DNA of 52,138 nt from NCBI GenBank assembly GCA_022566015.1, contig JADFJT010000003.1, positions 1 to 52,138 of the forward strand, read 5' to 3'. This stretch comes from Pseudomonadota bacterium (GTDB lineage: Bacteria; Pseudomonadota; Gammaproteobacteria; GCA-001735895). A program made the translations under genes and the position numbers. Below the pieces are notes generated by a model, which did no database searches, was not told where the DNA came from, and saw only the letters and a program-made list of their open reading frames with translations. This document shows, piece after piece, positions 4,985 through 27,442 of this stretch; positions within the stretch are counted from its first letter, which is position 1; every line of letters begins with the position of its first letter.

Positions 4985-5296
4985 TATTTACCAAATCACT
5001 ATTGCCCAGTGTTTCTGATTGGCGATTTTCTCTAGCTTCGAGTTGGCTCATGCGCAGTCATTAGATAATTTAAATGCAATGTTACTTTTTTGCTAAACGC
5101 AGTCAAACGATAGTCTTTACGCTTATCATGTCAAAATAAAAAATAACCATCGAATTTCTCGATCGACACTGAAGTAAAAGTGCAAATTGTTATGGCTACA
5201 GCGATGAATCGCTTAAATCACATTGGGAAAGTAGCGTGATTCAGGATGGTGTCCTGAACTCGATGTTATCTCGAATCTGGAATGCAGGACAAATAT

Positions 5297-6562: not shown

Positions 6563-7600
6563 ATGATAACAAGAATATTCAAGAAGAGCGCATTGATAAC
6601 CTGCATTGCTGCGATATCAATGTTCGCATTTACTAACCCTGCATTCGCGGTTGATCTGACCGTATACACTGCTATTGAGGCAGAAGATCTTAAGCGTTAT
6701 GCAGAAACTTTTAACAAAGAGCACCCTGATATCAAAATCAAATGGGTGAGAGACTCTACAGGGATAGTTACCGCCAAGCTACTCGCGGAAAAAAATAACC
6801 CGCAAGCCGATGTTATCTGGGGAATTGCAGCAACATCCTTGCTGATAATGAAAGCTGAAGGGATGTTTGTAGCTTACGAGCCAAAGGGCCTTGAAAACCT
6901 GGACCCGAAATTTTATGACACTGACTCACCGCCCAGCTGGGTTGGTATGGATGCGTGGGTGGCAGCGATATGCTACAACACTATCGAAGCTGCTAAATAT
7001 AATCTGTCTCCGCCAAAAACCTGGTGGGACCTCACTAAAGCAATGTACAAGGGTCATGTGATCATGCCGAACCCGAATTCATCCGGAACCGGCTTTCTCG
7101 ATGTCTCCAGCTGGTTACAAATGTTTGGTGAAACCGGCGGTTGGGCCTATATGGATGCGCTGCATGAAAATATCGCGCGTTATACTCACTCGGGTTCCAA
7201 GCCCTGCAAACTGGCAGCCGCAGGGGAAATCCCAGTCGGCGTATCCTTTGCGTTTCGCGGTGCGAAATCAAAAGCCAAGGGTGCACCCATTGATATCATC
7301 ATTCCACGTGAGGGTATAGGCTGGGACATGGAAGCTTCTGCCATTATTGCCGGCACTGATAAACTGGATGCTGCGAAAAAGCTCATGGACTGGTCCATTA
7401 CCAAAACTGCCATGGAAATGTATAACACAGCTTATGCCGTAGTTGCGTATAAAGGCCTCGCAAAACCAGTGAAGTATTTCCCACCCGAAACGCTTTCCAG
7501 GTTGATTGACAATGATTTCGACTTTGCAGCCAATAACAGAAAACGAATTCTGGCCGAATGGCAAAAACGCTACGATTCAAAGTCTGATCCGAAGAATTAG
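6563..7600 (+). CDS. Putative 2-aminoethylphosphonate ABC transporter substrate-binding protein
   Basis: Signal peptide; LTVYTAIE, WVRDSTGIVTAKLLAEKNNPQAD, MPNPNSSGTG, YTHSGSKPC, R.RILAEWQKRY, all typical of the PhnS2 family. GGAG RBS. Confidence 0.85.
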   Translation: MITRIFKKSALITCIAAISMFAFTNPAFAVDLTVYTAIEAEDLKRYAETFNKEHPDIKIKWVRDSTGIVTAKLLAEKNNPQADVIWGIAATSLLIMKAEGMFVAYEPKGLENLDPKFYDTDSPPSWVGMDAWVAAICYNTIEAAKYNLSPPKTWWDLTKAMYKGHVIMPNPNSSGTGFLDVSSWLQMFGETGGWAYMDALHENIARYTHSGSKPCKLAAAGEIPVGVSFAFRGAKSKAKGAPIDIIIPREGIGWDMEASAIIAGTDKLDAAKKLMDWSITKTAMEMYNTAYAVVAYKGLAKPVKYFPPETLSRLIDNDFDFAANNRKRILAEWQKRYDSKSDPKN

Positions 7601-7619
7601 CATTGCGATTTGAGTAGGC

Positions 7620-7652
7620 TACGGCCTGATCGATGTCCAGGATCAGGCCGTA
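7620..7652 (+). other. Intercistronic 12-bp-stem hairpin after the SBP gene (mRNA stabiliser or partial terminator)
   Basis: TACGGCCTGATC-N9-GATCAGGCCGTA. Confidence 0.55.
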
Positions 7653-7715
7653 CCATTTCTGGCAGCTTACCAACTACACCCGCACCCATTCCCATCACCA
7701 AAATTACTATTCGAT

Positions 7716-8861
7716 ATGAGTGAACAGCAAGCGGTCAATACCGAGAATGCTAAGCCTTATCTTCAGATAGACCGGTTGACTAAAAAATTCGGCGATTTTA
7801 TTGCGCTGGACCAGGTATCACTCGATGTATTTGAAGGCGAATTCATTTTCTTTCTGGGGCCTTCGGGTTGCGGAAAGACAACATTTCTCCGAGCCCTGGC
7901 CGGTCTTGATATTCAAACCTCCGGAACGGTGCGGCAGGCTGGTATCGACATTTCGGCATTACCGCCATCGGAACGAGACTTTGGTATCGTGTTCCAGTCT
8001 TATGCGTTATTTCCAAACCTGACCTCTGAAAGAAATATCGCATTTGGCCTCGAAAATCAAAAGTTCAGTAAGGCCGATGTCGCCAAACGAGTATCCGAGC
8101 TGCTGGAACTGGTGGGGCTTCCAGAACAGGGTAAAAAGTATCCGGCACAACTGTCGGGTGGCCAGCAGCAACGCATTGCCCTTGCCAGGGCACTGGCAAC
8201 TTCACCGGGCCTGTTATTGCTCGATGAACCCCTATCCGCACTCGACGCGAAGGTACGCACCCATTTACGCCATGAAATGAAAGCGCTTCAGAGGCGGTTG
8301 GGCGTCACCACCGTGATGGTTACACACGATCAGGAAGAGGCGTTGGCGATGGCCGATCGTATCGTTGTCATGAATCAGGGCGTCATAGAGCAAATTGGCA
8401 CACCGACAGAAATTTATCGTGATCCCAGCACCTTGTTTGTCGCCGATTTTATCGGTGAGATGAATCAATTCAAAGGAAAGGCTGGCAGCAAGAATACTGT
8501 CACAATCGGTGATGTTACATTCGCTTCACAGGAACACGACATGCAACAGCATACACCTGTGATCGTTGCGATTCGCCCCGAGGACATAGTGCCCCATGGT
8601 GAAGGTGCAAGTTCTCAGAGAGCTACCGAATCGGGTTCTACTACGGAGAATATATTCGATGCCACAGTCGAAAATATGGAATTTTTGGGTTCATTCTGGC
8701 GGGTTTCGCTAAACACCACCTTTATTGGCGATTCGCAGATGGTTGTCGACATGTCGATAAATGCGGTTCGACACATGGATGTTGCGATTGGTCATTCAAT
8801 TACCGTAGAGTTTCAGTCAGATCGGCTACGGGTATTCCCGGCCGACACTCATACTGTTTGA
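7716..8861 (+). CDS. Putative 2-aminoethylphosphonate ABC transporter ATP-binding protein
   Basis: GPSGCGKT, LSGGQQQR, LLLLDEP, C-terminal TOBE-like region; operonic with the SBP. Confidence 0.85.
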   Translation: MSEQQAVNTENAKPYLQIDRLTKKFGDFIALDQVSLDVFEGEFIFFLGPSGCGKTTFLRALAGLDIQTSGTVRQAGIDISALPPSERDFGIVFQSYALFPNLTSERNIAFGLENQKFSKADVAKRVSELLELVGLPEQGKKYPAQLSGGQQQRIALARALATSPGLLLLDEPLSALDAKVRTHLRHEMKALQRRLGVTTVMVTHDQEEALAMADRIVVMNQGVIEQIGTPTEIYRDPSTLFVADFIGEMNQFKGKAGSKNTVTIGDVTFASQEHDMQQHTPVIVAIRPEDIVPHGEGASSQRATESGSTTENIFDATVENMEFLGSFWRVSLNTTFIGDSQMVVDMSINAVRHMDVAIGHSITVEFQSDRLRVFPADTHTV

Positions 8862-10888
8862 TGTCTATCTCGGTCGAAACGTCCGCCATACCTAGCGCCC
8901 CGATTATTCGTCCTAAAACCAGTAAGGACGATCGAACTATGATCGCCTTCATGCTGGTCATTGGCCTGTACCTGATTATTGCGCTGGCCTTGCCGCTCTA
9001 TGCGATGTTGTCCAAGTCTTTTTCGACTTATTCATTCGATTTGAGTAATTTTGAATTTCAGGTCGATAAAGGTGAGGGTTGGAGTGAGCCCATCACCGCC
9101 CTGGCTCTCAATGAAAATCTAAATGTGGTTAAACCCGAAGAGCTGAAAACCAGTTCCGACGGAAGGTTAGGGGTAACTGCATTTTTTCCCGATTTCAACT
9201 TCCGTAGTCCGACTAAATACAGGCTACGTCAAATAAGGCTCGATAGTTCTTTTTTGGTCGGCAGCAAGCGCGTCGCCGATACCGAGTGGCACGAGTATGA
9301 ATCGAACCAATTCAGGCGTATCGTCCTGCGCCCGTCATCTGCGACAGGGCTGGAAAATTTTCGCACTTATTTCTCGACACCTGCGCTTTTCCGTTCCATT
9401 GAAAATTCACTATTTATTGCCGTACTGAGCACCATAATAACCGTTAGCCTGGCATTTGGATTCGCTTATGCGCTTAATCGCAGCAAAATGCGTTTCAAAG
9501 GAGTATTTCGATTGATCGCCATGGCGCCGATACTGGTGCCATCCTTATTGCCGGGTATAGCGCTGGTCTACCTGTTTGGCAATCAGGGTATGATCAAGGG
9601 GATGTTGTTCGGCGAATCTATCTACGGGCCGATCGGAATCGTGATCGGGTCGGTGTTTTTTACCTTTCCACATGCCTTGATCATTATTACCACGGCGCTG
9701 GCCATTTCGGATTCAAGACTATATGAAGCTGCGATATCGCTGCGCGCCAGTCGCTGGAGAACCTTCTGGACAGTCACCATTCCTGGTGCCCGCTATGGAT
9801 TAATATCGGCAGCATTTGTTGTTTTCAACCTGGTAATCACCGATTTCGGTCTGCCAAAGGTCATTGGTGGTCAGTACAACATGCTTGCCGTGGATATTTA
9901 TAAACAGGTAATTGGCCAGCAGAATTTTGAAATGGGCGCAGTGGTCTCGGTAGTTCTGTTGATTCCGGCGTTATTTGCATTTTCTATTGACCGCTACGTA
10001 CAGAAACGACAGGTCGCTGTGTTGACGGCGCAATCGGTACCATTTGAAGCAAAGCCACATAAACAATTTGATTTGATCTGTCTTTGCTACTGCCTGTTGG
10101 TCGGTATATTCATTGTCGGGCTCATTGGCGTCTGTCAGTATGCCGCCTTGATCAAATTCTGGCCCTATCAGTTAAGTTTGAGTCTGGTCAATTATAATTT
10201 TGACGTGATGGACGGGGGTGGGTGGGCCTCTTATACCAACTCGATTCAATTGGGTATCTATACTGCGATTGCGGGCACTATTCTGGTTTTTTCAGGCGCC
10301 TACGTGGTCGAGAAAACTAACGGTTTTTTCGCTACTCGATCAGCCTTTCAGTTTCTTGCGATGATGCCGATGGCAATTCCCGGCCTGGTTCTGGGCCTGG
10401 CCTACATCTTTTTCTTTAACGATCCCGCCAACCCACTGAATGGCCTGTACGCGACCATGGGGATCCTGGTAATTTGTACCGTGACTCACTTTTACACGGT
10501 CTCACATCTCACCGCTCTTACTGCTTTGAAGCAAATGGACAGGGAGTTTGAAGCGGTCGCCTCATCCCTGAAGCAACCATTCTACCGACTGGTTTCGGGC
10601 GTTACGATCCCGGTTTGCCTGCCCGCAATACTGGATATATCGATCTACCTGTTCGTCAACGCCATGACGACTGTCTCGGCGGTCATATTTTTGTATTCTC
10701 CCGATACGGCACTGGCGGCAATTGCAGTACTCAATATGGATGATGCCGGTGATGTTGCGCCCGCGGCGGCGATGGGCATGATGATTTTCTATACCAATGT
10801 GGTCGCGCGCTTGATCCATCTGCTGATTTCACGAAAAGTATTACGCAGGACCCAGGCTTGGCGCTCGCGCGAGTCCGTTGCCGATTGA
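8858..10888 (+). CDS. Putative 2-aminoethylphosphonate ABC transporter permease (fused double TMD)
   Basis: Two EAA-loop regions (LYEAAISL, FEAVASSL), TDFGLPKVIGG, LNMDDAGD.APAAAM and C-terminal RRTQAWR. Confidence 0.85.
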   Translation: MMSISVETSAIPSAPIIRPKTSKDDRTMIAFMLVIGLYLIIALALPLYAMLSKSFSTYSFDLSNFEFQVDKGEGWSEPITALALNENLNVVKPEELKTSSDGRLGVTAFFPDFNFRSPTKYRLRQIRLDSSFLVGSKRVADTEWHEYESNQFRRIVLRPSSATGLENFRTYFSTPALFRSIENSLFIAVLSTIITVSLAFGFAYALNRSKMRFKGVFRLIAMAPILVPSLLPGIALVYLFGNQGMIKGMLFGESIYGPIGIVIGSVFFTFPHALIIITTALAISDSRLYEAAISLRASRWRTFWTVTIPGARYGLISAAFVVFNLVITDFGLPKVIGGQYNMLAVDIYKQVIGQQNFEMGAVVSVVLLIPALFAFSIDRYVQKRQVAVLTAQSVPFEAKPHKQFDLICLCYCLLVGIFIVGLIGVCQYAALIKFWPYQLSLSLVNYNFDVMDGGGWASYTNSIQLGIYTAIAGTILVFSGAYVVEKTNGFFATRSAFQFLAMMPMAIPGLVLGLAYIFFFNDPANPLNGLYATMGILVICTVTHFYTVSHLTALTALKQMDREFEAVASSLKQPFYRLVSGVTIPVCLPAILDISIYLFVNAMTTVSAVIFLYSPDTALAAIAVLNMDDAGDVAPAAAMGMMIFYTNVVARLIHLLISRKVLRRTQAWRSRESVAD

Positions 10889-16418: not shown

Positions 16419-17393
16419 CTAAATTTCTAGCACAGTCGATCCAGTGGTATTTCTTGCCTCCAGACTACGGTGAGCGTCGGCACATTCGGCCAGTGAAAAA
16501 GATTGATTCACATGTATTTTGACTGCGCCACTGATTACCACTTCGAATAGTTTATTAGCCCCCTGCTCAAGTAGTTCGCGCGTTGAGGTATGTGTCGCCA
16601 GTGTGGGACGGGTGACATAAAGTGACCCTTTTGGCGCAAGAATAGATGGACTAAACGGTTCCACCGGTCCGCTAGCATTTCCAAAAGTGGCGAGCACGCC
16701 AAATGGCCTGAGCGAATCGAGCGAAGATTCGAAAGTTGCCTTACCGATTGAGTCGTATACCGCGGCAACGCCAGCCCCCTCGGTAATGTCGCGCACGCGC
16801 GTGGCAATATCTTCTTTGCGATAGAGAATGGTGTGCTCGCAACCATTTGCTTTCGCCAGATCGGCTTTTACATCCGAGCCTACGCAACCGATTACACTCA
16901 CCCCAAGCTGGCGTGCCCACTGGCAAAGGATTAGTCCCACGCCGCCTGCAGCGGCGTATACCAGTATAGTATCGCCAGATTGTACCGGATAGGTGCGATG
17001 CAGCAGGTAATGCGCGGTAAGCCCCTTTAACATCATTGCTGCCGCGGTCTGGTCGTTAATGCTGTCGGGTATTTTGAGCAAGTATTTTGCATCGATCAAG
17101 CGTGCCTCGGCGTATGCACCAAGCTGCATCGGGTAGGCGACCCGGTCACCGACTTTCAGTGAACCTGCACCCTCGGCGATTGCATCGACGACGCCAACCG
17201 CTTCCATGCCGAGAGTAGCCGGGAGTTCACCCACTGGATATAGGCCGGTACGACCGTATACGTCGATATAATTCAAACCGCAGGCTGTTTGACGTAATCG
17301 CACCTGACCTTCATCTGGATCGCCAACTTCGATTGATTCCCAGCGCAAAACTTCAGGGCCGCCGTGTTCGTTGATTCGGATTGCTTTAGTCAT
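16419..17393 (-). CDS. qor: NADPH:quinone oxidoreductase (zeta-crystallin family)
   Basis: GGPEVL, GLNYID, AAAGGVG, FGNASG, KGSLYVTRPTL, R.TTGSTVL. Confidence 0.9.
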   Translation of the reverse strand: MTKAIRINEHGGPEVLRWESIEVGDPDEGQVRLRQTACGLNYIDVYGRTGLYPVGELPATLGMEAVGVVDAIAEGAGSLKVGDRVAYPMQLGAYAEARLIDAKYLLKIPDSINDQTAAAMMLKGLTAHYLLHRTYPVQSGDTILVYAAAGGVGLILCQWARQLGVSVIGCVGSDVKADLAKANGCEHTILYRKEDIATRVRDITEGAGVAAVYDSIGKATFESSLDSLRPFGVLATFGNASGPVEPFSPSILAPKGSLYVTRPTLATHTSTRELLEQGANKLFEVVISGAVKIHVNQSFSLAECADAHRSLEARNTTGSTVLEI

Positions 17394-17561
17394 TTGTTGT
17401 CCTGGTCGTTGAGGTAAAGCTGCTGATCAGCAAGATTGGTTGTATTATGCAAAAAATGAGCGTGGCTTCAATGGTCACGAATTCCGACCCGCTGGCATAG
17501 CCGGCTTGCCAAGTTTATACCAATCCGATATCGTCAAAGTGTTATTTTCAATCTGGGACAT

Positions 17562-18428
17562 TTGATCATGCACTCGCTAGAGTTACCCGGATCACTGGTC
17601 AATGCTGACTGGCTATATGATCATATCGATCATTCGCAACTAGTACTTTTTGACGCCAGTTGGCACATGCCAGCCACGCAGCGAGTCGCGCGTGAAGAAT
17701 GGCGTAAGCAGCAAATCAGCAATGCGCGTTATTTCGATTTCGACCAGGCGATATGTGCCCCCGATTCCGAGCTGCCCCACATGATGCCCGATGCAGCGCG
17801 GTTTACCACCGAAGTGCAAAAACTGGGATTAAATCAGGATAGCGTGGTCGTGGTGTATGACACACTGGGATTATTTTCGAGCCCACGTGTGTGGTGGATG
17901 TTAAGGGCGATGGGGTTTGAATCCTGTGCGATCCTGGACGGCGGATTACCCGCCTGGAAGAAGGCCGGTTATCCGCTCAGCAACGAAACAGAAGCGAGTC
18001 CAGTTAGACCTGGAAATTTTGTCGCTGCCACTGTCGCCAACCGTTTCTGTGATGTAAACGTGGTGCTCGATGCCATCAACGATCAATCGGTCACGATACT
18101 CGACGCCAGATCGGGAGAGCGATTTCGTGGGGAAGTCGAAGAACCTCGCCCCGGACTCAAGAAAGGCCATATACCAGGAGCCAGTAATTTGCCTTTTCCC
18201 AATCTGGTATCGGAGGGTATTCTGAAACCAGAATCGGAGTTGAAGACAATTTTCCGGGAATTGATACCGCAGGGAAACCATACAATATGTAGCTGTGGTT
18301 CGGGCATAACCGCCTGTGTGATCGCGTTTGGTGCACACATGGCCGGGCATCATAATGTTTCGGTCTACGACGGTTCCTGGTGCGAATGGGGCCAGCCGGG
18401 CGATTTACCGGTGGTATGCGGGGATTAA
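17562..18428 (+). CDS. sseA: 3-mercaptopyruvate/thiosulfate sulfurtransferase (tandem rhodanese)
   Basis: DASWHMP, RVWWML, LDGGL, GHIPGA, active-site CGSGITAC, YDGSWCEW. Confidence 0.9.
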   Translation: MIMHSLELPGSLVNADWLYDHIDHSQLVLFDASWHMPATQRVAREEWRKQQISNARYFDFDQAICAPDSELPHMMPDAARFTTEVQKLGLNQDSVVVVYDTLGLFSSPRVWWMLRAMGFESCAILDGGLPAWKKAGYPLSNETEASPVRPGNFVAATVANRFCDVNVVLDAINDQSVTILDARSGERFRGEVEEPRPGLKKGHIPGASNLPFPNLVSEGILKPESELKTIFRELIPQGNHTICSCGSGITACVIAFGAHMAGHHNVSVYDGSWCEWGQPGDLPVVCGD

Positions 18429-18452
18429 CGTCGCGCAATAAAAATCGGTAAA

Positions 18453-19172
18453 TCAGGTCTGGTGGAGCACCAATCCGCCGAGGCCAGAAATATCGTCTAA
18501 CACAATATCCGCTATCTCCTCTAGCTCGCCCCGGGTACTGGCTCCGGTGAGTACGCCGACGCAAAGGCCAGCATCGGCATTTTTCCCCATTTCTATATCG
18601 TGGCGATTGTCGCCGACCACGATTACTTCGGCGGGTTCCAGCGAAAATTCGTCGCAAAATGCCATTACCATTCCGGGGTCGGGTTTGACCCCGTGGCCGC
18701 TATCGTAGCCGCAGAGGAAGTCGAACACAGAAATCACGTCAAATGATTGCAAGGTACTAAGGATACCCTGATAGCTGTCGCTAGTGGCCACTCCGAGTTT
18801 GAGCCCGGCCTGTTTCAGTTCCCGCAAAGTGGTTTGCAGGCCATTGACTGGGGTCGAGTGGAGTGCCCCCTGTTGCTGGAATAAATGGTTTAATCGGGTG
18901 CAGATGGCCTCGATTTGCGCTTCGTTCTCGATTCCGGGCAAATGCTTTGACCAGGCGATACCGATTTCTCGGTTATTTCCGGCAGCTAGCAACGAGCCAC
19001 CAATTATACGGTCGGTTTCAAGATCGTAACCATGCTGACTCAGCAATTCATCGGCTAGTTGCTGATCGTTGTTGCTTACTGCAAGGGCGGAGAACCGGTA
19101 AACAGGTAGCCAGGTTGCGTGGAAGTCGATCAGTGTTCCATCCTTATCGAAAACGACACCTTTGTATCTCAT
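18453..19172 (-). CDS. HAD-superfamily phosphatase (phosphoglycolate phosphatase-like)
   Basis: FDKDGTL, ATSD, KPDPG, VGDN.HD motifs I-IV. Confidence 0.85.
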   Translation of the reverse strand: MRYKGVVFDKDGTLIDFHATWLPVYRFSALAVSNNDQQLADELLSQHGYDLETDRIIGGSLLAAGNNREIGIAWSKHLPGIENEAQIEAICTRLNHLFQQQGALHSTPVNGLQTTLRELKQAGLKLGVATSDSYQGILSTLQSFDVISVFDFLCGYDSGHGVKPDPGMVMAFCDEFSLEPAEVIVVGDNRHDIEMGKNADAGLCVGVLTGASTRGELEEIADIVLDDISGLGGLVLHQT

Positions 19173-19203
19173 AAGTCGTCACCGCCTTCGGGAAGTATTC
19201 GAG

Positions 19204-19758
19204 TTATAGCAGTAATAGTGATTCGAGTTTTTCTCTATAGCTTCCAACCGGTTTGATATCAAGACCGGCCACCTTGCCATCGTCATCGTAGAGACGGACT
19301 TTTATCGCCGCCCGGTGGTGATAATTTGCTTTAAAAATCTCGATCTCCGCTTTTTCCATCGGTCCGCCCTGAACCTGTAGTGATTGTTTAGATGCCGAGG
19401 ACAGATTTTCGAAATAATGGTCATCGACCGCGCACAGGTACTTCTTCGCTGCAACATGCAAGCGGATCGGTTCTGTGACGGATGACGGATAGTATGGCTC
19501 AAGAAACTTGGCGCCGATCTCCTGATGGCGATTGTCGATGCCATTTTCCAGCGAATCGATCGGAAAATCGCCGACAAAATGGCCGATATCATGTAGTAAT
19601 GCGGCGATCACCATGTCGTCGGGCGCGGCATCGACTACCGCACAGGCCGCCGATTGCTCCATGTGTTGCGCCATACTCACCGACTCACCCATATATTCTT
19701 CCGCGCCACGCTGGGCGAATAAATCGAGTATGAATTCTACAATAGTATCGCGATTCAT
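19204..19758 (-). CDS. HD-domain di-iron oxygenase, PhnZ/TmpB-like
   Basis: EEYMGESVSMAQHMEQSA, AALLHDIGH, DNRH, IRLHVAAKKYLCA, LS.AS..SL..QGGPM, R.YDD.GK. Confidence 0.8.
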   Translation of the reverse strand: MNRDTIVEFILDLFAQRGAEEYMGESVSMAQHMEQSAACAVVDAAPDDMVIAALLHDIGHFVGDFPIDSLENGIDNRHQEIGAKFLEPYYPSSVTEPIRLHVAAKKYLCAVDDHYFENLSSASKQSLQVQGGPMEKAEIEIFKANYHHRAAIKVRLYDDDGKVAGLDIKPVGSYREKLESLLLL

Positions 19759-19761
19759 CGA

Positions 19762-21057
19762 TTATAAAGTGCCCTGTTTTAGCGATGTGTCGATAATAAT
19801 TTCGATTAATTCAAAATTGGACTCGGCGCTGATGTCTTCAAAATAAACCGTGCCAGGCCAGGGGGGCTCTCTTAACTCATATCCGTTTTTCGCTATGGCT
19901 CTGGCAACCGTTTTAATCGCATCTACGTATTCGATGGTCATTGCCTCGATTTCTTTTTTTGCGATATCGAGATCAGCAATACTGTTACGGTCGACCTGGG
20001 TAGCACCTATGCCTATAAAGAGTGGAATATTGGACTCAATGGCCTGGTCTACGTAAAAAGATACCGGTGTTCGATCTTCGGCGAGACGAATCACAAAATC
20101 GGGGCAAACGCTATTTTTTAATTTATATAACTCAATCAGGCTCAATGGCTCTGAGTCACTTTTTTTGGGGCTCTTGCGCCGTCTGGATGAAGAGTGACCC
20201 TTGTTAGCCCGGGTCACATAGTCCCCACGGTAATTGGCATCGTAGACGCGATTCCCCCAGGGATTGCCAGCAATTATTCGTTGAGTGGATCGGATAGCTA
20301 CATTTTTACAGTTTTGGGGGCCAATAAAAAAGGGCGAACCAGAGGCATCACTCAGCTCGACCCATCCGTCGGGGTACTGATTGAAAAAATGATCCATCCA
20401 GGGCTCTAGAACGGTGTCGCTCAGGTGATCGAGGAATCTATTAACGAAATCGGGCTCATGGGTCAGGGCGGTGATTATTTGTTCCTGCCCAAAGATATCC
20501 GCTGCAAGGCTATAAGCTGCAGTCAAATGTAAGACAGGATTTAGCCCGGTTAAACGCTGATAACAGGCTGATATTTCATCCAGCAGCCTGGGTATGCCAG
20601 CGTTCATATCGGGAGTGGCTATATCTTGCCAGTTGTCGGCATTGGCTAGTGGCTTATCTGGATCCGTACCAGGAGAATACTGATCCGAGTAAATCATTTC
20701 CTGGCCCAGGGCTTCCGCAGTAAATCCATAAACTGGCCAGCTGATATAAAGCTTGGGCATACCCAGTATCTTTTGAGTCATTAACGATGTTCGTACGAAA
20801 CGCTCGGGGTCCTGCTTATAATATTCTGCAGCTGTCAGACCATATAGGCGGTGCATTATCGTTAGTGTCATCAAATCCACGGGACCCGAAACAGGAACCG
20901 CGTCTTGCGAAGCTGGCCACTTGAAAATCTCGTCGTACTGTCCCTTTAAGGCACCATCCATAATTTCCATCAGGCGTTTTACTGCCTCAGGATCACCCGC
21001 TTGCCAGCCCGCCAACAAACGAATACCCGCTGGAAAATTCAATTCTTCAATTGGCAT
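19762..21057 (-). CDS. Uroporphyrinogen decarboxylase-like / MtaA-type corrinoid methyltransferase-superfamily protein (divergent)
   Basis: YGFTAEALGQEM.YSD...PG...PL, AAYSLAADIFG.EQII.AL..EPDFV...LD, and SDASGS..FIGP match URO-D/MtaA-family segments. ATG 21057 with GAGG RBS. Confidence 0.6.
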   Translation of the reverse strand: MPIEELNFPAGIRLLAGWQAGDPEAVKRLMEIMDGALKGQYDEIFKWPASQDAVPVSGPVDLMTLTIMHRLYGLTAAEYYKQDPERFVRTSLMTQKILGMPKLYISWPVYGFTAEALGQEMIYSDQYSPGTDPDKPLANADNWQDIATPDMNAGIPRLLDEISACYQRLTGLNPVLHLTAAYSLAADIFGQEQIITALTHEPDFVNRFLDHLSDTVLEPWMDHFFNQYPDGWVELSDASGSPFFIGPQNCKNVAIRSTQRIIAGNPWGNRVYDANYRGDYVTRANKGHSSSRRRKSPKKSDSEPLSLIELYKLKNSVCPDFVIRLAEDRTPVSFYVDQAIESNIPLFIGIGATQVDRNSIADLDIAKKEIEAMTIEYVDAIKTVARAIAKNGYELREPPWPGTVYFEDISAESNFELIEIIIDTSLKQGTL

Positions 21058-21116
21058 TATTATTTTGCCTCGATGCCTGGTCTGCAACCGATTCTAAATT
21101 GATAGGAGGCCAATGG

Positions 21117-23651
21117 CTAGCACAGAATCTTTTCCCGATTCGGATCGTAGATTGCTCCTTTCACTATCGATGCTGGACTCCGCTTACCGAAAGCCTGGAC
21201 GCTAAAATCACTGTGGGAGAATACGTCGACTGGCAGGTAACCGAGAACCAGACTCTTGCCGACAGAGTACCCGAAGTTCCCACTGGTTGTTTGAGCAACA
21301 ACCTTATCACCGCAAAAAATAGCTTCACCACCAAACACCGGCAAAGGATCATCAAGAGCAAGGCATGCAAGCTTTTGCTGTACACCCTCCTGCTTGATTT
21401 TGGTAAGGGCCTCCGCCCCAATAAAGCCACCCTTGTCCCAGTCGATAAGAAACTGCAATCCAGCCTCGAAAGGATTATAGTCAGGAGTAATGTCGAGACC
21501 CCACGCGAGATACCGCTTTTCCAGGCGCAGGCTGTCGATTGCTCGGTAACCGATATTGGTGATACCAAATTCTTCGCCAGCCCGCTGTAATTCCTCGTAT
21601 GCATACTGAAGGTACTCAGACGGGATATAGAGTTCCCATCCCAGTTCACCGATAAAGGTAACCCGGTAGGCGAGGGCGGGCGCATATCCGATCCTGATAT
21701 CCTTCGCTGCCATAAACGGGAAGGCTTCGTGGCTCAAATCTTCGTCGCAAACTTTCTGCAATACCCTACGTGCCAGCGGGCCGGCGAGATTTATCACGCC
21801 ATGCGCCGAGGTGATGTCGCGCAGTTCTACCTGTTTGAATCCAGGTGAATTCGATCGAATCGCCTGTTCGCCGGATTGAATCCATTGTTCTCCCGATCGG
21901 GCCCATTGTTTATCGCTATTACGCCTGGAATTGCTGCGTTGATCGTGATTGCTTTGAAGGTGGCTTTCAATCCAGTGTCTGTCGCGGACACCGAAGCCGG
22001 ACCCGGTGATCAGCCAGAAACAATTTTCTGAACGCCGTATGATGGTCACATCGGCCTCGATGCCGCCCCGCTCATTGCATAACTGCGTATAGGTTGCTCC
22101 CCCCGGTTCTTTATCGACATTCGCCACAGCGAGGTATTGTAAAAATTGGCAGGCCTGGGGGCCGCTGATCTCGAATTTGGTAAATGAGGACATATCGATC
22201 AGGACAACGCCCTCGCGCGCAGCCCGATGTTCGCGACCAACAGTAATGTCCTCCTGCGGCCGGTCGAACCCGAAGACGTCACGCTGCGGGATATCACCAG
22301 AGGCGAACCAGTTGGCTCGCTCCCAGCCAAATTTCGATCCGAAAACAGCACCCTGGTCTTTCAAAGTTTGATAGAGGGGACTGCGGCGCACACCACGGGC
22401 TGATTCCAGTTCCTCTCCCGGCCAGTGGATTGCGTAGTACTTGCTGTAGCTTTCGACCGCTCGGTCGTGCAGAAACCGCCGGCCAGCGTGTAAGGGTCCA
22501 AAGCGGCGAATATCGAAAGGCCATAGATCAAGGCCTGGATCGCCTTCGAGAATCCAGTTGGCTACGGCCTTTCCAGCGCCACCCGATGCGGCTATGCCGG
22601 AGGTGAATGCGCAAGCGCTAAAGAAATTAGTCAGCCCGGGAACCGGGCCCATGATTGGCTCACCATCGGGAGAGATGGGTATAGGTCCATTGACGATAGT
22701 ACGCATACCGAGTTCAGCCAGAATAGGAATGCGCCGCATCGCAGGTTCGAAAAATTCTTCCAGTCGATCCATATCGCCGTCAAACAGATGGCGCTCGTTT
22801 TGCCATGGAAAACCCTCCCTGGGATTGACGGTACTGGTTTGCCTTTCCCAGCCCCCAATGGCTAGCGCACCCGGTTCCGGTTTGACATAGAAACCACCGT
22901 CCGGGTCGCGTAGCGCCGGTAGACCAGCAGGGATCAGGTCGGATTTTTCGGTCACAAGGTACTGATGCTCGACCACGCCCGCAGGGATTTCAACCCCGGC
23001 CATCCACCCGACCTGGCGCGCCCAAAGACCCGCCGCATTGACCACTGTTTCCACTTCGATGTTGCCCTGCTCGGTGACCACCTGGGTTATTCGATTGCCG
23101 TTGCGCAGCAGATTTTTGACCATCACGCCTTCGAAGATTCTGCCTCCGTTGGCGCGGGTGCCTTTCGCATAGGCCTGGGTCAGGCTGTTCGGGTCGATGT
23201 ATCCGTCTGCCGGGATGAAAGCGGCGCCGACTAAATCACCGGTTTCGATCAATGGGTATAAATCACGCGCCTCGTTTGGTGTGAGCAGGTTCATTTCAAA
23301 CCCTACCGACTGTGCGGCGGAATAAGACTTGAGAAGCTCCTTCCAGCGGTCTTCGGTTTGCGCCAGCCTGAGGCTGCCGAATTTGTGCCAGTCGATTTCC
23401 TGCCCGGTTTCTTCGGCCAGCACGTCGAATAATTTGACACTGTCGTTCATCAGACTCATCAGGTTCTGCTGCGAACGAAACTGCCCCACCAGCCCGGCCG
23501 CATGCCAGGTAGCGCCCTCGGTCAGACGTGACTTTTCAAGCAGCACGACATCCTTCTCGCCGGAACGAGTCAGGTGATACGCGATGCTGGTGCCAATTAC
23601 GCCACCGCCAATGACGACGATGCGGGCACTAGTCGGAAGTGATGTCGACAT
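21117..23651 (-). CDS. GcvT-family FAD-dependent demethylating dehydrogenase (dimethylglycine/sarcosine dehydrogenase-like)
   Basis: IGGGVIG, GATWHAAG, NAAGLWA, GWERANWF, DMSSFTK, GELGWELY, SLRLEK, P.EAGL. Confidence 0.9.
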   Translation of the reverse strand: MSTSLPTSARIVVIGGGVIGTSIAYHLTRSGEKDVVLLEKSRLTEGATWHAAGLVGQFRSQQNLMSLMNDSVKLFDVLAEETGQEIDWHKFGSLRLAQTEDRWKELLKSYSAAQSVGFEMNLLTPNEARDLYPLIETGDLVGAAFIPADGYIDPNSLTQAYAKGTRANGGRIFEGVMVKNLLRNGNRITQVVTEQGNIEVETVVNAAGLWARQVGWMAGVEIPAGVVEHQYLVTEKSDLIPAGLPALRDPDGGFYVKPEPGALAIGGWERQTSTVNPREGFPWQNERHLFDGDMDRLEEFFEPAMRRIPILAELGMRTIVNGPIPISPDGEPIMGPVPGLTNFFSACAFTSGIAASGGAGKAVANWILEGDPGLDLWPFDIRRFGPLHAGRRFLHDRAVESYSKYYAIHWPGEELESARGVRRSPLYQTLKDQGAVFGSKFGWERANWFASGDIPQRDVFGFDRPQEDITVGREHRAAREGVVLIDMSSFTKFEISGPQACQFLQYLAVANVDKEPGGATYTQLCNERGGIEADVTIIRRSENCFWLITGSGFGVRDRHWIESHLQSNHDQRSNSRRNSDKQWARSGEQWIQSGEQAIRSNSPGFKQVELRDITSAHGVINLAGPLARRVLQKVCDEDLSHEAFPFMAAKDIRIGYAPALAYRVTFIGELGWELYIPSEYLQYAYEELQRAGEEFGITNIGYRAIDSLRLEKRYLAWGLDITPDYNPFEAGLQFLIDWDKGGFIGAEALTKIKQEGVQQKLACLALDDPLPVFGGEAIFCGDKVVAQTTSGNFGYSVGKSLVLGYLPVDVFSHSDFSVQAFGKRSPASIVKGAIYDPNREKILC
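21853..21915 (-). repeat. Degenerate 21-bp x3 coding tandem repeat inside an insertion in the GcvT-family gene
   Basis: GATCGAATCGCCTGTTCGCCG / GATTGAATCCATTGTTCTCCC / GATCGGGCCCATTGTTTATCG, encoding DKQWARS-GEQWIQS-GEQAIRS. Confidence 0.6.
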
Positions 23652-23660
23652 GAATCTGTT

Positions 23661-25202
23661 TTACGGGGATGAATTTTCCGTTTTTTTGTGTTTGCGCCGA
23701 CGACGACTAGGGCGTCGTTCACGCACTGGAACATTTCTGCCAATGTCTAAACGCTTCCATCCTTCCTGAAGCATCGCGTCACCCGCGACCAGGCCTTCGA
23801 ATTCGGCGCGGATACGGGCATCGACATCGGGTTCAAATACGGCGGTATTTGGAACGGAAAGAATATCAAACACCTTGTTCATCGCCCGTTGATGAATAGT
23901 CGAACTTCCCTCTAGCTCCCAATGCTCGCGTATCTTCCTGTCAGCCAGTTCGGGCAAAAAGGTAGACGTGTGCATGCGTTCCAGGGTCGCAGGATTTGCC
24001 GCGAACAGGCCCGCCGGGCCGGTTTCCTTGATTTCCTCCAGTGAGGCGGATTCTTTGGAGAATCCAAATCCGTCGCGCACTCGTTTAATCATCATTGCAA
24101 TTTCATTATCGATTGCAGCCTGACCGAAGTCGAACGACATCAACGCGTCCTGCAGGCCTCCCATAACGATAAAATCTACTCCCGACAGTGCTCCCATTAG
24201 CGGTGACATGCCTTTTTCGAAACCAGACTGGGCATCGGAGACCTTGGAATTGGTCAGACCGAGATATCCACCCGCAGGTACATTATAAAAACGTGCCATT
24301 TGGCAAACGGTCGAATTCATCATGCCAATTTCGATCGCACCCGGCGCATATGCGCCATCTCGCATATCGGCAAAGACAGGGAGGAAATTAAATATTTGAG
24401 CCGTTCCCGCTTTGGACATCTGTGCCAGCGTCGCGGCTGCCAGCCATTCGGCGTTCATGATGACCAACATGCCGGATAGTGTCAGCGGAGTGCTCAGTCC
24501 ACCCATCGGCGCGATCGTGCCGTAAGCAGTAATACCCTTTTCGGCGAAGTACATCAGCGTATCGGTGCTATCGAAATCCATGGTTAAGGGCGAGACTATC
24601 GAGCAGTATCCGAAATTGATAAATGGCCGCTCCCAGAAGGCTTCTTTAGACCCTGCGATCAATTCACCCAGTTTGATCACCTGATCGGCTTCGCGGACAT
24701 TGTAAACAGAAGTCCGGACGGGTTTGACGCAATTCTTCAGTGCCGTATAAAATCGGGTCAGACTGAATTGATCCCTGGGGGCATCGTCGGCGAGGGTGGA
24801 GATCGAAAACAGATCGAAGCCCGGTAGCTCGTTGACCAGATGGGCGATACGCGCAATATCGTCGGATCTAGCACGGCGTGTCACCCCAGTCACGGGGTCG
24901 ACAATGTCCGGCGCCGAGCTTGCGGTTGCGATGACCGGTAGTTTGCGGGGAAAGGTAATATCGAATGCGGGGTCTCGACCGCGCAGGGTAATAGTCGGAG
25001 GCACCAGGGCGCGGTACTTTTCGACAATCTTTGAGGGGATGCGCACCATCTCGGTTTCGTGATCGACAATCGCACCATGCTGTGCGAATCGTTTCCTTGC
25101 TTTTTCGTTACGAACCAGCAGGCCGACTTCCTCAAGAATTTCGAGCGAAGACTCGTGTACGTAGCGGATATCCTCGTCAGTCAGGTAGCTAAAAAAGTTC
25201 AT
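23661..25202 (-). CDS. Trimethylamine methyltransferase (MttB) superfamily, non-pyrrolysine (MtgB-like quaternary-amine:corrinoid methyltransferase)
   Basis: HESSLEILEEVG, SIVSPL.MD, DMRDG...GAIE, QMARFYNVP, GLTNSKVSDAQSGFEK, IDNEIA; no in-frame amber codon. Confidence 0.9.
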   Translation of the reverse strand: MNFFSYLTDEDIRYVHESSLEILEEVGLLVRNEKARKRFAQHGAIVDHETEMVRIPSKIVEKYRALVPPTITLRGRDPAFDITFPRKLPVIATASSAPDIVDPVTGVTRRARSDDIARIAHLVNELPGFDLFSISTLADDAPRDQFSLTRFYTALKNCVKPVRTSVYNVREADQVIKLGELIAGSKEAFWERPFINFGYCSIVSPLTMDFDSTDTLMYFAEKGITAYGTIAPMGGLSTPLTLSGMLVIMNAEWLAAATLAQMSKAGTAQIFNFLPVFADMRDGAYAPGAIEIGMMNSTVCQMARFYNVPAGGYLGLTNSKVSDAQSGFEKGMSPLMGALSGVDFIVMGGLQDALMSFDFGQAAIDNEIAMMIKRVRDGFGFSKESASLEEIKETGPAGLFAANPATLERMHTSTFLPELADRKIREHWELEGSSTIHQRAMNKVFDILSVPNTAVFEPDVDARIRAEFEGLVAGDAMLQEGWKRLDIGRNVPVRERRPSRRRRKHKKTENSSP

Positions 25203-25288
25203 CGCACAGGTATCCAGAGCTAGTTTTTGGTGCGGAAACTTTAGGTAGCCTCCTGACTTGCGTCAAACAATAAATACTGTCACCATGT

Positions 25289-25303
25289 ATAAGTAAATCT
25301 TAT
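25289..25303. promoter_or_regulatory. LysR T-N11-A operator
   Basis: ATAAG-TAAAT-CTTAT palindrome between the divergent mttB and lysR genes. Confidence 0.55.
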
Positions 25304-25317
25304 TCGAAAATAAGCAC

Positions 25318-26205
25318 TTGCGACGTCCCCGACTCAATATTCTACGCACCTTCGAAGCCGCTGGCCGACGCCTGAGTTTCTCGCTGGCTGCCGACGATAT
25401 GAAGATTTCTCAGGCGGCAGTGAGCCAGCAGATGCGTCAGCTGGAGGCTTATCTGAGTACTCCCCTGTTCGTGCGGCATCACCGCCGCCTGTCCCTGACC
25501 AGCACCGGTCAGGCTTATCTGGAAGCGGTACACGAGGCGCTAGATCGACTCGATTCGGTGACCGATCGACTGTTCCCAGGCCGGCAAAATCAGACCGTAA
25601 CTCTGCGCTGTACATCGGTTGTAGCGACACTCTGGCTGGCACCACAACTTGGATCCCTGCAAAAGCTACATCCTGACATAGATTTGCGTATCAATACGCT
25701 CGATCAAGGCTATGACAGTCGAAGTTCCCCTACGACAGACCTGGAAATTTTCATACAAAGGCAAGGCGCTTCCAGCGTCTCTGCACAAAAACTGTTAACC
25801 TCGACGATAACACCAGTTTGTTCGCCCGATCTGTTTGCCGGTCGCCAGCGTCTCAATGAACCGGTTGATGTGCTGAGGCATCAATTGATTCATGTACTTG
25901 GCTACGACGATGACTGGCACCGATGGTTTCGCACCTATCGACTGAATGAAGTCAGCATCCCACGAGGGTTATCCGTTGACGGATCGTTAATCGCGATCGA
26001 GGCGGCGCAGCGGGGCGATGGAATAATGCTCGGCAGGCGTCCGTTTATCGACCGTCATTTGCAATCTGGAGAGTTGGTTGAAGCATTTGAAAAGCCGTTC
26101 CACCTCTATGCCGATTATTTTTTACGACTATCAACTCGGTCTACCGGACAGCGTGCGAGTAGCATAGTAGCGAAATGGATTACCGAATTAGCCGCGCGGG
26201 AATGA
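25318..26205 (+). CDS. LysR-family regulator, GcvA-like
   Basis: LN.LRTFEAAGRRLSFS.AA....SQAAVSQQ.RQLE; W..WF; G.LV..F. TTG start. Confidence 0.9.
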   Translation: MRRPRLNILRTFEAAGRRLSFSLAADDMKISQAAVSQQMRQLEAYLSTPLFVRHHRRLSLTSTGQAYLEAVHEALDRLDSVTDRLFPGRQNQTVTLRCTSVVATLWLAPQLGSLQKLHPDIDLRINTLDQGYDSRSSPTTDLEIFIQRQGASSVSAQKLLTSTITPVCSPDLFAGRQRLNEPVDVLRHQLIHVLGYDDDWHRWFRTYRLNEVSIPRGLSVDGSLIAIEAAQRGDGIMLGRRPFIDRHLQSGELVEAFEKPFHLYADYFLRLSTRSTGQRASSIVAKWITELAARE

Positions 26206-26252
26206 CGACGGTTAAAAACAGCAGATCGAGTCAGAGCCATCGTGCTCTTATA

Positions 26253-26735
26253 TTAATTTGTGAGGCTTTTGAGCGCATCGGATATCTGGTTCTGACTAAA
26301 CACCGAAATACCGTGACGTCTTAACAGCGCGGTCGTGACACCGATACCCGCACGGCTGTGGCCAGTAAAACTTCCGTCGTAAATCTGATGGCTGCCGCAG
26401 GAGGGGCTCGATTCAGTCAGTATGGCCACCTTAATCTGGTGTTGACGGCAGAGTTCGAGCGCCAGTTTTGCGCCACGCATAAATGCACTGGTGACATCTT
26501 TGCCCTGCGCTGTGCTAACCGTTGAAATCCCATCTACCACCGCAACGCCATCTCCATGTTGAATCTCGGCCGCGGCTCTTGGTATCGGGAGCCCTCCAGC
26601 GACTTCGGGACAAAATGAAATGATCCGGCCCTGCTTTGTTAATTCAATCAGGTCGGCATCGTTGGTCGCTTTGGATCGACCGTCGTAGCGGACCGGATCG
26701 CCGAGTAGGCAGGCGCTGACCAATACTTTGCGCAT
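26253..26735 (-). CDS. DUF523 / 2-thiouracil desulfurase-family Fe-S protein
   Basis: VSACLLG..VRYDG, CPEVAGGL.IPR, SPSCG, G.GVT.ALL. Confidence 0.85.
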   Translation of the reverse strand: MRKVLVSACLLGDPVRYDGRSKATNDADLIELTKQGRIISFCPEVAGGLPIPRAAAEIQHGDGVAVVDGISTVSTAQGKDVTSAFMRGAKLALELCRQHQIKVAILTESSPSCGSHQIYDGSFTGHSRAGIGVTTALLRRHGISVFSQNQISDALKSLTN

Positions 26736-26737
26736 GA

Positions 26738-27442
26738 TCAATAATGGCTTTTGCGTTCAACCGGTGAGTATAACGAGCTGTCGAGGAAGCTAGAAATATA
26801 ACCCTGGCGTTTCCATAGCAACTCACGGTATAACTCGGTGAAATTACTCACGGTCGAATTTTTTACCACTTCTTGCTGCAATAGATGATTTTTCCATTGG
26901 GTTATTTTGGGATGTCTTGCAGAGTCGAACATAGCCGGGCCAAGTTCCCCCAGACAGTGCAGGCGATGGAATAATGGAGCGTAGGAAGCGTCGACCATCG
27001 AAAATTCCGTACCGTTAAAATAAGGCTGCGGGTTTATAATCTCCTCAAGCTGGTCGAAGCGCTGATTTAAAACTTCCAGAACATCACCAAAGTTTTCTTT
27101 AGTCTCAGCAATGCTGAGTTCGAACGAATGAGTCATGCACGGGCCCGAAAACTCGATCCAGCTACGATTCTTGGCACGTTTTATCAGATCTGAAGGATGC
27201 AGTTTATTGGGGAAGGCTTCTTCGAGGAATTCATTGATGACGTTAGATTCGAAGATTACCTCTTTGTCCCACAGCAATAATGGTACCTTGCCAAAAGGGG
27301 ATATTTTCACAAACCAGTCAGCCGGATCGGCCAAATCGATGTATTCGATGTCGTAATCTATGTTTTTCTGGCGTAATACGATGACTGCTTTTTGTACAAA
27401 CGGGCATAGTTTGAAGCTGACCAGTTTTGGCTTGATGTTCAT
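26738..27442 (-). CDS. Glutathione S-transferase family protein
   Basis: SFKLCPFVQ, SPFGKVP, FESNVINEFL, FSMVD. Confidence 0.9.
   Translation of the reverse strand: MNIKPKLVSFKLCPFVQKAVIVLRQKNIDYDIEYIDLADPADWFVKISPFGKVPLLLWDKEVIFESNVINEFLEEAFPNKLHPSDLIKRAKNRSWIEFSGPCMTHSFELSIAETKENFGDVLEVLNQRFDQLEEIINPQPYFNGTEFSMVDASYAPLFHRLHCLGELGPAMFDSARHPKITQWKNHLLQQEVVKNSTVSNFTELYRELLWKRQGYISSFLDSSLYSPVERKSHY

Follow-up and report, generated by a model that had tools for sequence, protein, structure and literature searches.

This study concerns a gene cluster at positions 18453-26205 of JADFJT010000003.1, a contig of 52,138 nucleotides in the assembly GCA_022566015.1 of a Pseudomonadota bacterium (Gammaproteobacteria; lineage GCA-001735895). 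The whole contig, called here the window, bears the label C82 in an assembly of 2.97 Mb that has 197 contigs and is 96% complete. An initial annotation had read five minus-strand genes of the cluster, with a divergent LysR gene, as one operon that strips methyl groups and phosphorus from a single substrate. We conclude that the cluster is very probably a composite of two separately conserved units (Table 1). The first (19762-26205) would be a LysR-controlled catabolic module encoding an MttB-family methyltransferase, a dehydrogenase and a URO-D-like protein. The second (18453-19758), tmpB-HAD, would be what is left, after loss of tmpA, of the tmpB-tmpA-HAD operon that is typical of the genus and serves the use of 2-(trimethylammonio)ethylphosphonate (TMAEP). 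Both units are probably read as one transcript. Our overall explanation, to which we give a probability of roughly 0.4, is that the composite of module and tmpB-HAD acts on TMAEP-type compounds. MttB would move one methyl group from a carboxylate-free quaternary amine to the corrinoid protein MtgC, the dehydrogenase would take the next methyl group or groups oxidatively onto tetrahydrofolate, and the protein with the URO-D/MtaA fold would perform a further step. The HD oxygenase encoded by tmpB would free phosphate from the 1-hydroxylated form, which would be made by another hydroxylase or taken up.

Six genus loci were fetched for comparison of the tmp operon. In two of them, L092 (3587-1763) and L093 (2570-4960), the HD, TmpA and HAD genes form a single run; the HD proteins are 67-69% and the HAD proteins 61-65% identical to those of the window, and the TmpA that adjoins tmpB in genus relatives passes the NCBIfam cut-off. 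L092 shares both flanking genes, for quinone reductase and sulfurtransferase, with the window, and L093 shares the sulfurtransferase gene; a DUF523 gene lies on the HD side in both. The window thus represents the same genomic site, from which tmpA is gone, HD and HAD now lying 31 bp apart, and in which a four-gene module stands between HD and DUF523. The same module is found at the same site, rearranged, in L024 (the same as L096) and in L025: the order is GST, LysR, MttB, dehydrogenase, URO-D-like, DUF523, HD in the former and GST, LysR, MttB, dehydrogenase, URO-D-like, HAD, SseA in the latter. One further genome, G017 (L097), has HD-HAD without tmpA. The window HAD is the ortholog of the HAD that closes the tmpB-tmpA-HAD operons of the genus, and is a partner of tmpAB and not of MttB. 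Its motif I is DKDGT (residues 9-13), of the phosphatase type DxDxT, and it falls far short of the phosphonatase family, scoring only 50.6-53 bits with the PhnX model TIGR01422 (cut-off 220). A weak ceramidase-like gene (36 bits) was also seen near tmpB-tmpA-HAD in L092.

The first unit was traced in 62 related loci with a URO-D-like gene, from Gammaproteobacteria (including sponge-associated and Thioglobus/SUP05 lineages), Rhodobacterales, Hyphomicrobiales and Acidimicrobiia. Window-type MttB and dehydrogenase genes precede the URO-D-like gene in 5 of the 62. A LysR gene was seen in four of these five (L024, L025, L027 and L029), in the same position as in the window and 70-82% identical to it; the sequence of the fifth, L036, starts at MttB, so that LysR is not visible there. 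More distant MttB/dehydrogenase pairs lie near the URO-D-like gene in L033 and L054. The MttB and dehydrogenase genes also occur in a cultured alphaproteobacterium, Pseudohalocynthiibacter aestuariivivens BS-W9 (L128 5969-12150), where a LysR gene (57% identical) is divergent from MttB (83%), the dehydrogenase (73%) and a PALP-family pyridoxal-phosphate enzyme; at other sites this genome encodes a TmpB that exceeds the cut-off and two URO-D-like proteins.

These neighborhoods bear on the model of the initial annotation, in which five enzymes form one operon for one substrate and the MtaA-like protein is the MT2 methyltransferase. The tight packing and the single divergent regulator speak for that model, but all five enzyme genes were found together only in the window. 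HD was present in one of the five module loci (L024) and HAD in another (L025), HD-HAD belongs to a separate operon in the genus, and most URO-D-like genes stand with LysR alone and no MttB, LysR adjoining them in at least 24 of the 62 loci. We therefore regard a single five-enzyme operon as quite unlikely. The proposed connection to methylated aminophosphonates gained support from the tmp genes linked to the URO-D-like gene and from an importer in the window.

An HD gene was found in 17 of the 62 loci, in 16 of them no more than 1.4 kb from the URO-D-like gene, and a TmpA-like gene adjoins that HD gene in 12. The linkage of URO-D-like gene and tmpB extends across three phyla (Gammaproteobacteria, Alphaproteobacteria and Actinomycetota are named). 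The TmpA-like proteins of the SUP05 type pass the TmpA cut-off (427.6 and 422.8 bits against 400) and also an older gamma-butyrobetaine dioxygenase model. URO-D-like carriers without an adjacent HD gene have a TmpB-family gene elsewhere in 23 of 32 cases, 12 of them above the cut-off. In a 151-genome family sample around Leisingera, 26 genomes have TmpB and 8 have the URO-D-like gene; TmpB was found in 5 of these 8 carriers, compared with 21 of the 143 genomes without the URO-D-like gene (Fisher p = 0.004; 0.015 without the chosen center genome), an association that is indicative only, because the relatives are not independent. The URO-D-like gene itself is patchy, occurring in 13 of 36 same-genus relatives and in 0 of 25 genomes of other families.

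Several further arrangements were observed at these loci. In a Candidatus Thioglobus sp. (L047:8284-9972) the TmpA-like and TmpB-like HD domains form one open reading frame (ORF) of 563 residues, and the same was seen in L049, L051 and L053; judged by its continuous frame, TmpA and TmpB are naturally fused in these bacteria, whereas L050, L054 and L057-L059 encode them separately. In L050, L054, L058 and L059 the URO-D-like gene is followed by a tandem pair of type-II-dehydroquinase-like genes, each of about 150 aa, and L050, L054 and L059 have an MtgE-like homocysteine S-methyltransferase gene further downstream and a PhyH-family dioxygenase gene upstream of tmpA.

The window carries additional genes of this kind within 12 kb of the locus. 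One is a set for a putative 2-aminoethylphosphonate (AEP)-type importer, in which PhnS2, PhnT2 and PhnU2 score 504.4, 514.8 and 778.3 bits against cut-offs of 392.75, 457.7 and 593.25. This set was not seen beside the related loci, in flanks reaching only 10 kb. The other is a ureidoglycolate-lyase-like (UGL-like) gene, whose product is 60-66% identical to one that Leisingera sp. ANG-M1 encodes in third place, behind tmpA-tmpB (L124:6495-7214). Relatives of the same identity lie after HD in Amylibacter (L126:7974-8636) and before tmpA in L095, and in L032, L047, L049 and L051 the gene immediately after the URO-D-like one is 46-63% identical. The UGL-like gene is a conserved neighbor of tmpA/tmpB across Gamma- and Alphaproteobacteria. 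Neither PhnX, PhnW, PhnJ nor PhnA (C-P lyase thus included) was found at cut-off in the genome of the window, and the HD protein is therefore the only recognizable enzyme for carbon-phosphorus (C-P) cleavage found there. TMAEP and its hydroxylated or partly demethylated relatives are favored as substrates because of the importer, the UGL-like gene, and the linkage of the URO-D-like gene to tmpA-tmpB in three phyla. We name this substrate family tentatively; it rests on gene linkage, and the loss of an acid-binding Arg from MttB, described below, counts against it.

Among known enzymes the HD protein is closest to TmpB. TmpAB of Leisingera caerulea, in a 2019 paper, reportedly converts TMAEP to (R)-hydroxy-TMAEP and then to glycine betaine and phosphate. 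Searches against PDB sequences gave TmpB (6NPA) at E 2.2e-46 over 168 residues and PhnZ at 1.4e-27. The alignment to 6NPA is gapless over residues 1-168; the diiron ligands H..HD..H..H..D are present, as is the substrate loop YxxE, in the form Y22-M-G-E25 (roles of these motifs from PMC8177086). Scores with both family models were below the cut-offs: 217.6 bits (cut-off 300) for TmpB, NF049941, and 182.8 (cut-off 214.6) for the PhnZ-type model TIGR03276. A TmpB-family gene was found in 49 of 61 genus genomes, 0 of them above the cut-off, and a TmpA-family gene in 42 of 61, 30 of them above it.

The HD gene is intact in three genomes without TmpA, where the proportion of synonymous differences (pS) is 0.76-0.80, which is saturated, and that of nonsynonymous differences (pN) is 0.15-0.19. 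Comparison of the window HD with five genus orthologs gave pN of 0.15-0.23, again with saturated synonymous sites; for most pairs the ratio dN/dS was therefore not computable, and the pN values were used alone. Because pN is low while synonymous sites are saturated, we conclude that HD is kept under selection.

The MttB gene of the window encodes a protein that matches Pfam MTTB (PF06253) over residues 4-466 with 261.6 bits (gathering threshold 25) and scores 351.8 with the Pyl-type model TIGR02369, below the cut-off of 525. It is non-Pyl, because the 513-aa ORF has no in-frame stop (table 11). The genome holds nine MttB matches, of which the window copy is the most divergent from the Pfam model. 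In MtgB, Y97 and F356 hold the trimethylammonium group of glycine betaine and R312 and H348 its carboxylate, and R312 is kept in MttB relatives that use other acid-bearing quaternary amines, MthB included (PMC13080624). In a phmmer alignment to the MtgB structures 9YCE/2QNE the window enzyme has Ser95 in place of Y97, Gly311 in place of R312, a gap of one residue behind Val346 in place of H348, and Leu354 in place of F356, with all four betaine-binding residues thus replaced or deleted. MAFFT alignments gave the following for other proteins: The same Ser/Gly/gap/Leu is present in the MttB orthologs of L024, L025, L027, L029 and L036; Tyr/Arg/His are retained in the own-genome paralogs on C139 and C33, and Arg/His in those on C138 and C74; and Gly plus Glu is found in the C96 paralog and in the MttB proteins of L033 and L054, which are also near DAO-GcvT genes. 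Window-type MttB comprised 2276 proteins at E <= 1e-50 among 8000 candidates scored. The best 120 homologs were 80-89% identical, and 120 of 120 had the Ser/Gly/gap/Leu signature. Because the subfamily is without all four betaine-binding residues, glycine betaine is an unlikely substrate; from these pocket residues the window MttB likely acts on a non-betaine compound. A phosphorus-bearing amine as substrate of an MttB-family enzyme has a precedent, since MthB of Eubacterium limosum demethylates phosphocholine (PMC12155760).

The pocket also bears on the classical use of TmpB, in which it would free glycine betaine from hydroxy-TMAEP, MttB would convert this to dimethylglycine, and the dehydrogenase would convert dimethylglycine to sarcosine. 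That route agrees with glycine betaine being the product of TmpB (PMC10574752), with MtgB-type betaine demethylation via MtgC being established in aerobic marine bacteria (PMC12478193), and with the dimethylglycine-dehydrogenase architecture of the window dehydrogenase. It would, however, use an MttB without the four betaine residues in a genome in which two other MttB paralogs keep Tyr/Arg/His, one of them beside the MtgC genes, and in which no tmpA was found. We consider it very unlikely.

The dehydrogenase has the domain order DAO, FAO_M, GCV_T and GCV_T_C, the architecture of dimethylglycine/sarcosine dehydrogenases; it is 25-35% identical to its own-genome paralogs, and none of the equivalog models reached its cut-off. 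The genome has several DAO-GcvT genes, and four MttB/DAO-GcvT pairs, on C82, C96, C127 and C33. The initial annotation had found neither TmpA/PhnY nor a corrinoid protein in the window, as our scans of the window proteins also showed, and had suggested partners elsewhere. For the corrinoid protein such a partner was located: contig C139 (7351-13618) carries in a row the genes for a 237-aa B12-binding_2 + B12-binding protein, a DUF1638 protein, MTHFR_C, MTHFR and Pterin_bind proteins, and a RACo-type reactivase, and an MttB gene of the MtgB type lies 2.8 kb beyond. This set corresponds to MtgC, DUF1638, MetF2, MtgD and RamA and matches the aerobic MtgBCD system. In Ruegeria pomeroyi the same set moves the methyl groups of glycine betaine to folate and makes methionine (PMC12478193). 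The DxHxxG motif was invariant in 21 MtgC orthologs, and an MtgC ortholog (66-92% identity) was present in 48 of 50 genomes carrying the URO-D-like gene; the corrinoid genes themselves lie near the URO-D-like gene in 1 of the 62 loci, L048. By analogy with the published work on this gene set, the window module quite likely uses the MtgC hub.

The URO-D-like protein scores 24.3 bits with Pfam URO-D, a marginal match (cut-off 23.9), and 19-29 bits with MtaA models, including 19.5 against a cut-off of 400 for the MtaA equivalog NF040654. At E <= 0.001 there were 1133 homologs among 3988 candidates; of the 120 listed, the few that bear a name in any source are called hypothetical or members of the URO-D family. 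When PDB sequences were searched with a profile of the family there was no match at E <= 1, and in the ESM Atlas the homolog P0112 falls only in 'URO-D-like' clusters. The AlphaFold model (pLDDT 92.4, pTM 0.89) was confident except for residues 287-301, a conserved basic disordered loop. In structural comparisons with Foldseek and VIA-align the best matches were tied, MtaA (4AY8) at Z 26.4 (root-mean-square deviation, rmsd, 3.1 A over 315 residues) and URO-D at about 26 (4ZR8, Z 26.2), both well above MetE at about 17. The model thus predicts a URO-D/MtaA barrel fold. In sequence it is 10-13% identical to URO-D, an enzyme with catalytic Asp, Arg and Tyr residues. Low-complexity stretches that are basic and Ser/Arg-rich were seen in this loop, in an insertion of the dehydrogenase and in the C-terminal tail of MttB.

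MtaA and MtbA, which are MT2 proteins, have a conserved His/Cys/Cys zinc site for thiol activation. The family was compared in 43 sequences from three phyla, 46-82% identical to the window protein, of which 22 have Pfam URO-D as their sole family match. Invariant in the 43 are the basic R89, R270, R277 and K314 and many residues that are aromatic or acidic; there is no invariant His or Cys, only C250 and C318 reaching 90%. Because of this, a His/Cys/Cys zinc site cannot be conserved in the family, and the protein appears to be a zinc-site-less barrel of an uncharacterized, strongly conserved family. Passage of methyl groups from the corrinoid to an acceptor by an MtaA-like protein, as first proposed, finds some support in the structural match to MtaA and in the occurrence of the gene almost only in MtgC genomes, but the zinc site is not conserved and MtgD already provides methylcorrinoid:folate transfer, and in that form the proposal is not borne out. 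Two roles fit the evidence. One would be a zinc-free, corrinoid-linked methyl transfer, consistent with the MtaA fold and the MtgC genomes. The other would be a lyase or decarboxylase activity toward a compound with a trimethylammonium group, which fits because the invariant residues are mainly aromatic and acidic and the gene mostly stands alone with a LysR gene.

A number of results weigh against action of the composite on TMAEP-type compounds. The HD protein scores below the TmpB cut-off. In its genome there was no match to TmpA (NF049936) at E <= 1e-20, and tblastn for TmpA found just a 22%-identical TauD paralog. Nine own-genome PhyH/TauD paralogs were scanned and none was near a known phosphonate hydroxylase model; the TauD gene on C79, which with a fragment on C11 left out of the hydroxylase scan is among four TauD-family matches in the genome, was likewise far from such models. 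With neither TmpA nor a hydroxylase-like paralog, the hydroxylated substrate of HD has no evident source. TmpA was not found in the six module-bearing genomes searched, by family in G000, G019, G036 and G021 and by protein query only in G001-G005 (G001, G002 and G004 being the same as G019, G036 and G021), the blank being weak for G003 and G005, which had no positive control. Two genomes that carry the module, G036 and G021, yielded no HD gene. Within the genus, HD is present in 8 of 13 URO-D-like carriers against 21 of 23 non-carriers, and TmpA-family genes in 4 of 13 against 22 of 23; this rarity of TmpA could reflect its replacement or one clade that lost it. The Gly at the Arg312 position argues against an anionic group there, phosphonate included; MttB proteins of the window type occur much more widely than does their linkage to the URO-D-like gene; and any AEP formed by demethylation of TMAEP would meet no PhnW or PhnX in the genome. 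The juxtaposition of HD and the module could be incidental.

If it were, the module would degrade a quaternary amine without phosphorus (similar to choline or tetramethylammonium, or some other non-carboxylate osmolyte), and tmpB-HAD would be a decaying leftover of the tmp operon, placed by chance beside the insertion site. The Gly in the pocket suits a substrate without an acidic group, and the missing HD and TmpA genes and the lack of HD enrichment among genus carriers are in line with two unrelated neighbors, as is the Pseudohalocynthiibacter MttB-dehydrogenase pair, which is followed by the pyridoxal-phosphate enzyme and has no phosphonate genes nearby. Chance proximity does not readily account, however, for the URO-D-like gene lying beside tmpB and tmpA in so many loci of three phyla, for an HD gene intact and under purifying selection in three genomes without TmpA, or for a gap of just 3 bp between the URO-D-like and HD genes with PhnS2T2U2 and the UGL-like gene close by. 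We consider incidental proximity somewhat unlikely. Action on TMAEP-type compounds, the explanation we prefer, has a more specific form, in which the MttB subfamily, the DAO-GcvT dehydrogenase and the URO-D-like protein would make up a corrinoid/folate route demethylating TMAEP (trimethyl to dimethyl to monomethyl or AEP) through the MtgC hub, in place of TmpA here; we think that version unlikely as it stands.

The closest known systems each share part of this picture. Genus relatives pair tmpB with TmpA, as in TmpAB, and the window HD keeps the diiron ligands and YxxE loop of TmpB, whereas its genome has no TmpA that we found and its score is below the family cut-off. TmpAB is described as a two-gene operon (PMC10574752), unlike the genus operon, which adds HAD, and that of Leisingera sp. 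ANG-M1, which adds the UGL-like gene. As in the split methionine synthase MtgBCD(E) of R. pomeroyi (PMC12478193), the whole hub is encoded in one cluster, whose MtgC is presumably also the docking partner of the window MttB; unlike MtgB, the window enzyme acts from outside this cluster: it is without the betaine residues and is encoded with its own LysR, dehydrogenase and URO-D-like genes on a separate contig. MthB is likewise an MttB-superfamily enzyme, and its phosphocholine is a phosphorus-bearing quaternary amine isosteric with TMAEP, but it comes from an anaerobic acetogen and has its own corrinoid protein and a choline kinase (PMC12155760), and it keeps the Arg312 equivalent (PMC13080624) where the window enzyme has Gly. 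The URO-D-like protein shares the barrel of MtaA/MtbA (4AY7/4AY8) and URO-D at rmsd 3.0-3.3 A over 315-324 residues, yet it is only 10-14% identical to them, with about 45 extra N-terminal residues and the basic disordered loop. The FAD oxidoreductases PbfB/C/D resemble the proposed dehydrogenase step as flavoenzymes that extend aminophosphonate catabolism to N-methylated forms such as N-methyl-AEP; they differ in releasing methylamine and phosphonoacetaldehyde, in lacking a GcvT/folate domain and in being inactive on TMAEP (PMC10590968).

According to the same paper, TMAEP is a frequent natural phosphonate, no flavoenzyme attacks it, and TmpAB is the sole route described (PMC10590968). Our literature search, whose coverage lay outside most subscription journals, returned no corrinoid-dependent demethylation of TMAEP and no protein of the URO-D-like type that works with TmpAB. 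In the window and its relatives the tmp genes are accompanied by at least three conserved genes absent from the literature searched, those for the URO-D-like, UGL-like and HAD proteins, and MttB of an abundant subfamily with a non-betaine pocket is encoded next to them. Should methylated phosphonates be the substrates of the module, the redox cycle of marine phosphorus would be tied to cobalamin/folate one-carbon metabolism. Were the demethylative route correct, it would be a second TMAEP pathway, in which a corrinoid first demethylation fills the gap left by the flavoenzymes; the URO-D-like protein, along with those of the UGL-like and HAD genes, would then be a missing trimethyl-phosphonate enzyme widespread in SUP05, roseobacters, Acidimicrobiia and sediment Gammaproteobacteria. 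If the substrate is another quaternary amine, it would be a new substrate class for aerobic MttB enzymes using the MtgC hub. Because the cultured P. aestuariivivens BS-W9 has the MttB-dehydrogenase module, two URO-D-like genes and tmpB, the question is open to bench work.

The anatomy of the locus agreed with the initial annotation: the five minus-strand genes lie head to tail, with gaps of 31, 3, 59 and 9 bp from HAD through HD, URO-D-like and dehydrogenase to MttB and a divergent GcvA-like LysR gene, and Pfam and NCBIfam scans bore out all of its family calls. The gap of 59 bp applies to the ATG start of the URO-D-like gene; a longer ORF, 19762-21087, starts at TTG. LysR scores 236 bits with the GcvA model NF008352 (cut-off 288) and 204 with a choline-sulfate regulator model (cut-off 324.8). 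In the MttB-LysR spacer a perfect 6+4+6 palindrome (25299-25314), ending 3 nt before the LysR start, holds the T-N11-A box that had been noted (25301-25313), a short box, which is no proof of binding. A minus-strand promoter-like match at 25266-25238 in the spacer is a consensus match only. The sole minus-strand terminator-like site in 17400-26400 falls inside the dehydrogenase gene.

Table 1 Features of the locus and its surroundings (window positions)
Feature	Position	Strand	Basis or remark
PhnS2-PhnT2-PhnU2, putative 2-aminoethylphosphonate-type ABC importer	6563-10885	+	NCBIfam models
Ureidoglycolate-lyase-like (UGL-like) protein, 226 aa	12447-13124	+	PF04115, 44-52 bits over the window, L124 and L126 copies
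Quinone reductase, synteny anchor	16419-17393	-	flanks HAD-tmpA-tmpB in genus relatives
3-Mercaptopyruvate sulfurtransferase (SseA), synteny anchor	17562-18428	+	flanks HAD-tmpA-tmpB in relatives
HAD-IA hydrolase, 239 aa	18453-19172	-	HAD_2, 93.2 bits; ORF calls
TmpB-like diiron HD oxygenase, 184 aa	19204-19758	-	Pfam HD, 27 bits; NCBIfam TmpB NF049941
URO-D/MtaA-fold protein (predicted), 431 aa from ATG at 21057	19762-21057	-	Pfam URO-D
DAO-FAO_M-GCV_T-GCV_T_C dehydrogenase, 844 aa	21117-23651	-	all four Pfam domains above cut-offs
Non-Pyl MttB-family methyltransferase, 513 aa	23661-25202	-	Pfam MTTB
Divergent control region MttB/LysR, 115 bp	25203-25317	both genes start outward	palindrome inside
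GcvA-like LysR regulator, 295 aa	25318-26205	+	HTH_1 + LysR_substrate
DUF523/2-thiouracil-desulfurase-like protein, synteny anchor	26253-26741	-	directly beside tmpB in module-less relatives

The gene order is real and no assembly artifact, because in an independent DNA run a single contig of 8878 bases crosses the locus, covering 18502-26800 with 47 differences. The stretch was present in runs from 7 studies, mostly labeled marine sediment metagenome, none of them recorded as RNA. Two runs labeled 'metatranscriptomic WGA', which may be DNA, had flat contig cover over the genes and flanks and were not used. At 18406-18476, the junction of the sulfurtransferase and HAD genes, contigs were broken or loose-ended in 4 of 4 runs examined, which suggests strain-level rearrangement between these two genes. 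Base composition was considered as a mark of transfer of the module and rejected as such, since the module genes do not differ from their flanks: guanine-plus-cytosine content is 0.47-0.55 in the module genes and 0.53-0.54 in the HAD, quinone reductase and DUF523 genes, and in 2-kb bins it is highest (0.56) at 22-24 kb.

Two other stretches of the window were noted. Divergent from the importer, 3572-6073 (minus strand) encodes a DAO-family oxidoreductase of 471 aa, which scores 247.6 bits (cut-off 460) with a type-2 glycerol-3-phosphate-oxidase model, and an S-adenosylmethionine-dependent methyltransferase with a weak match to CpaM (corrinoid-protein-associated; 66.8 bits, cut-off 180). At 45895-50187 genes for a thiamine ABC transporter come after a transposase gene of the IS200/Y1 type, with ThiB and ThiP above their cut-offs and ThiQ just below.

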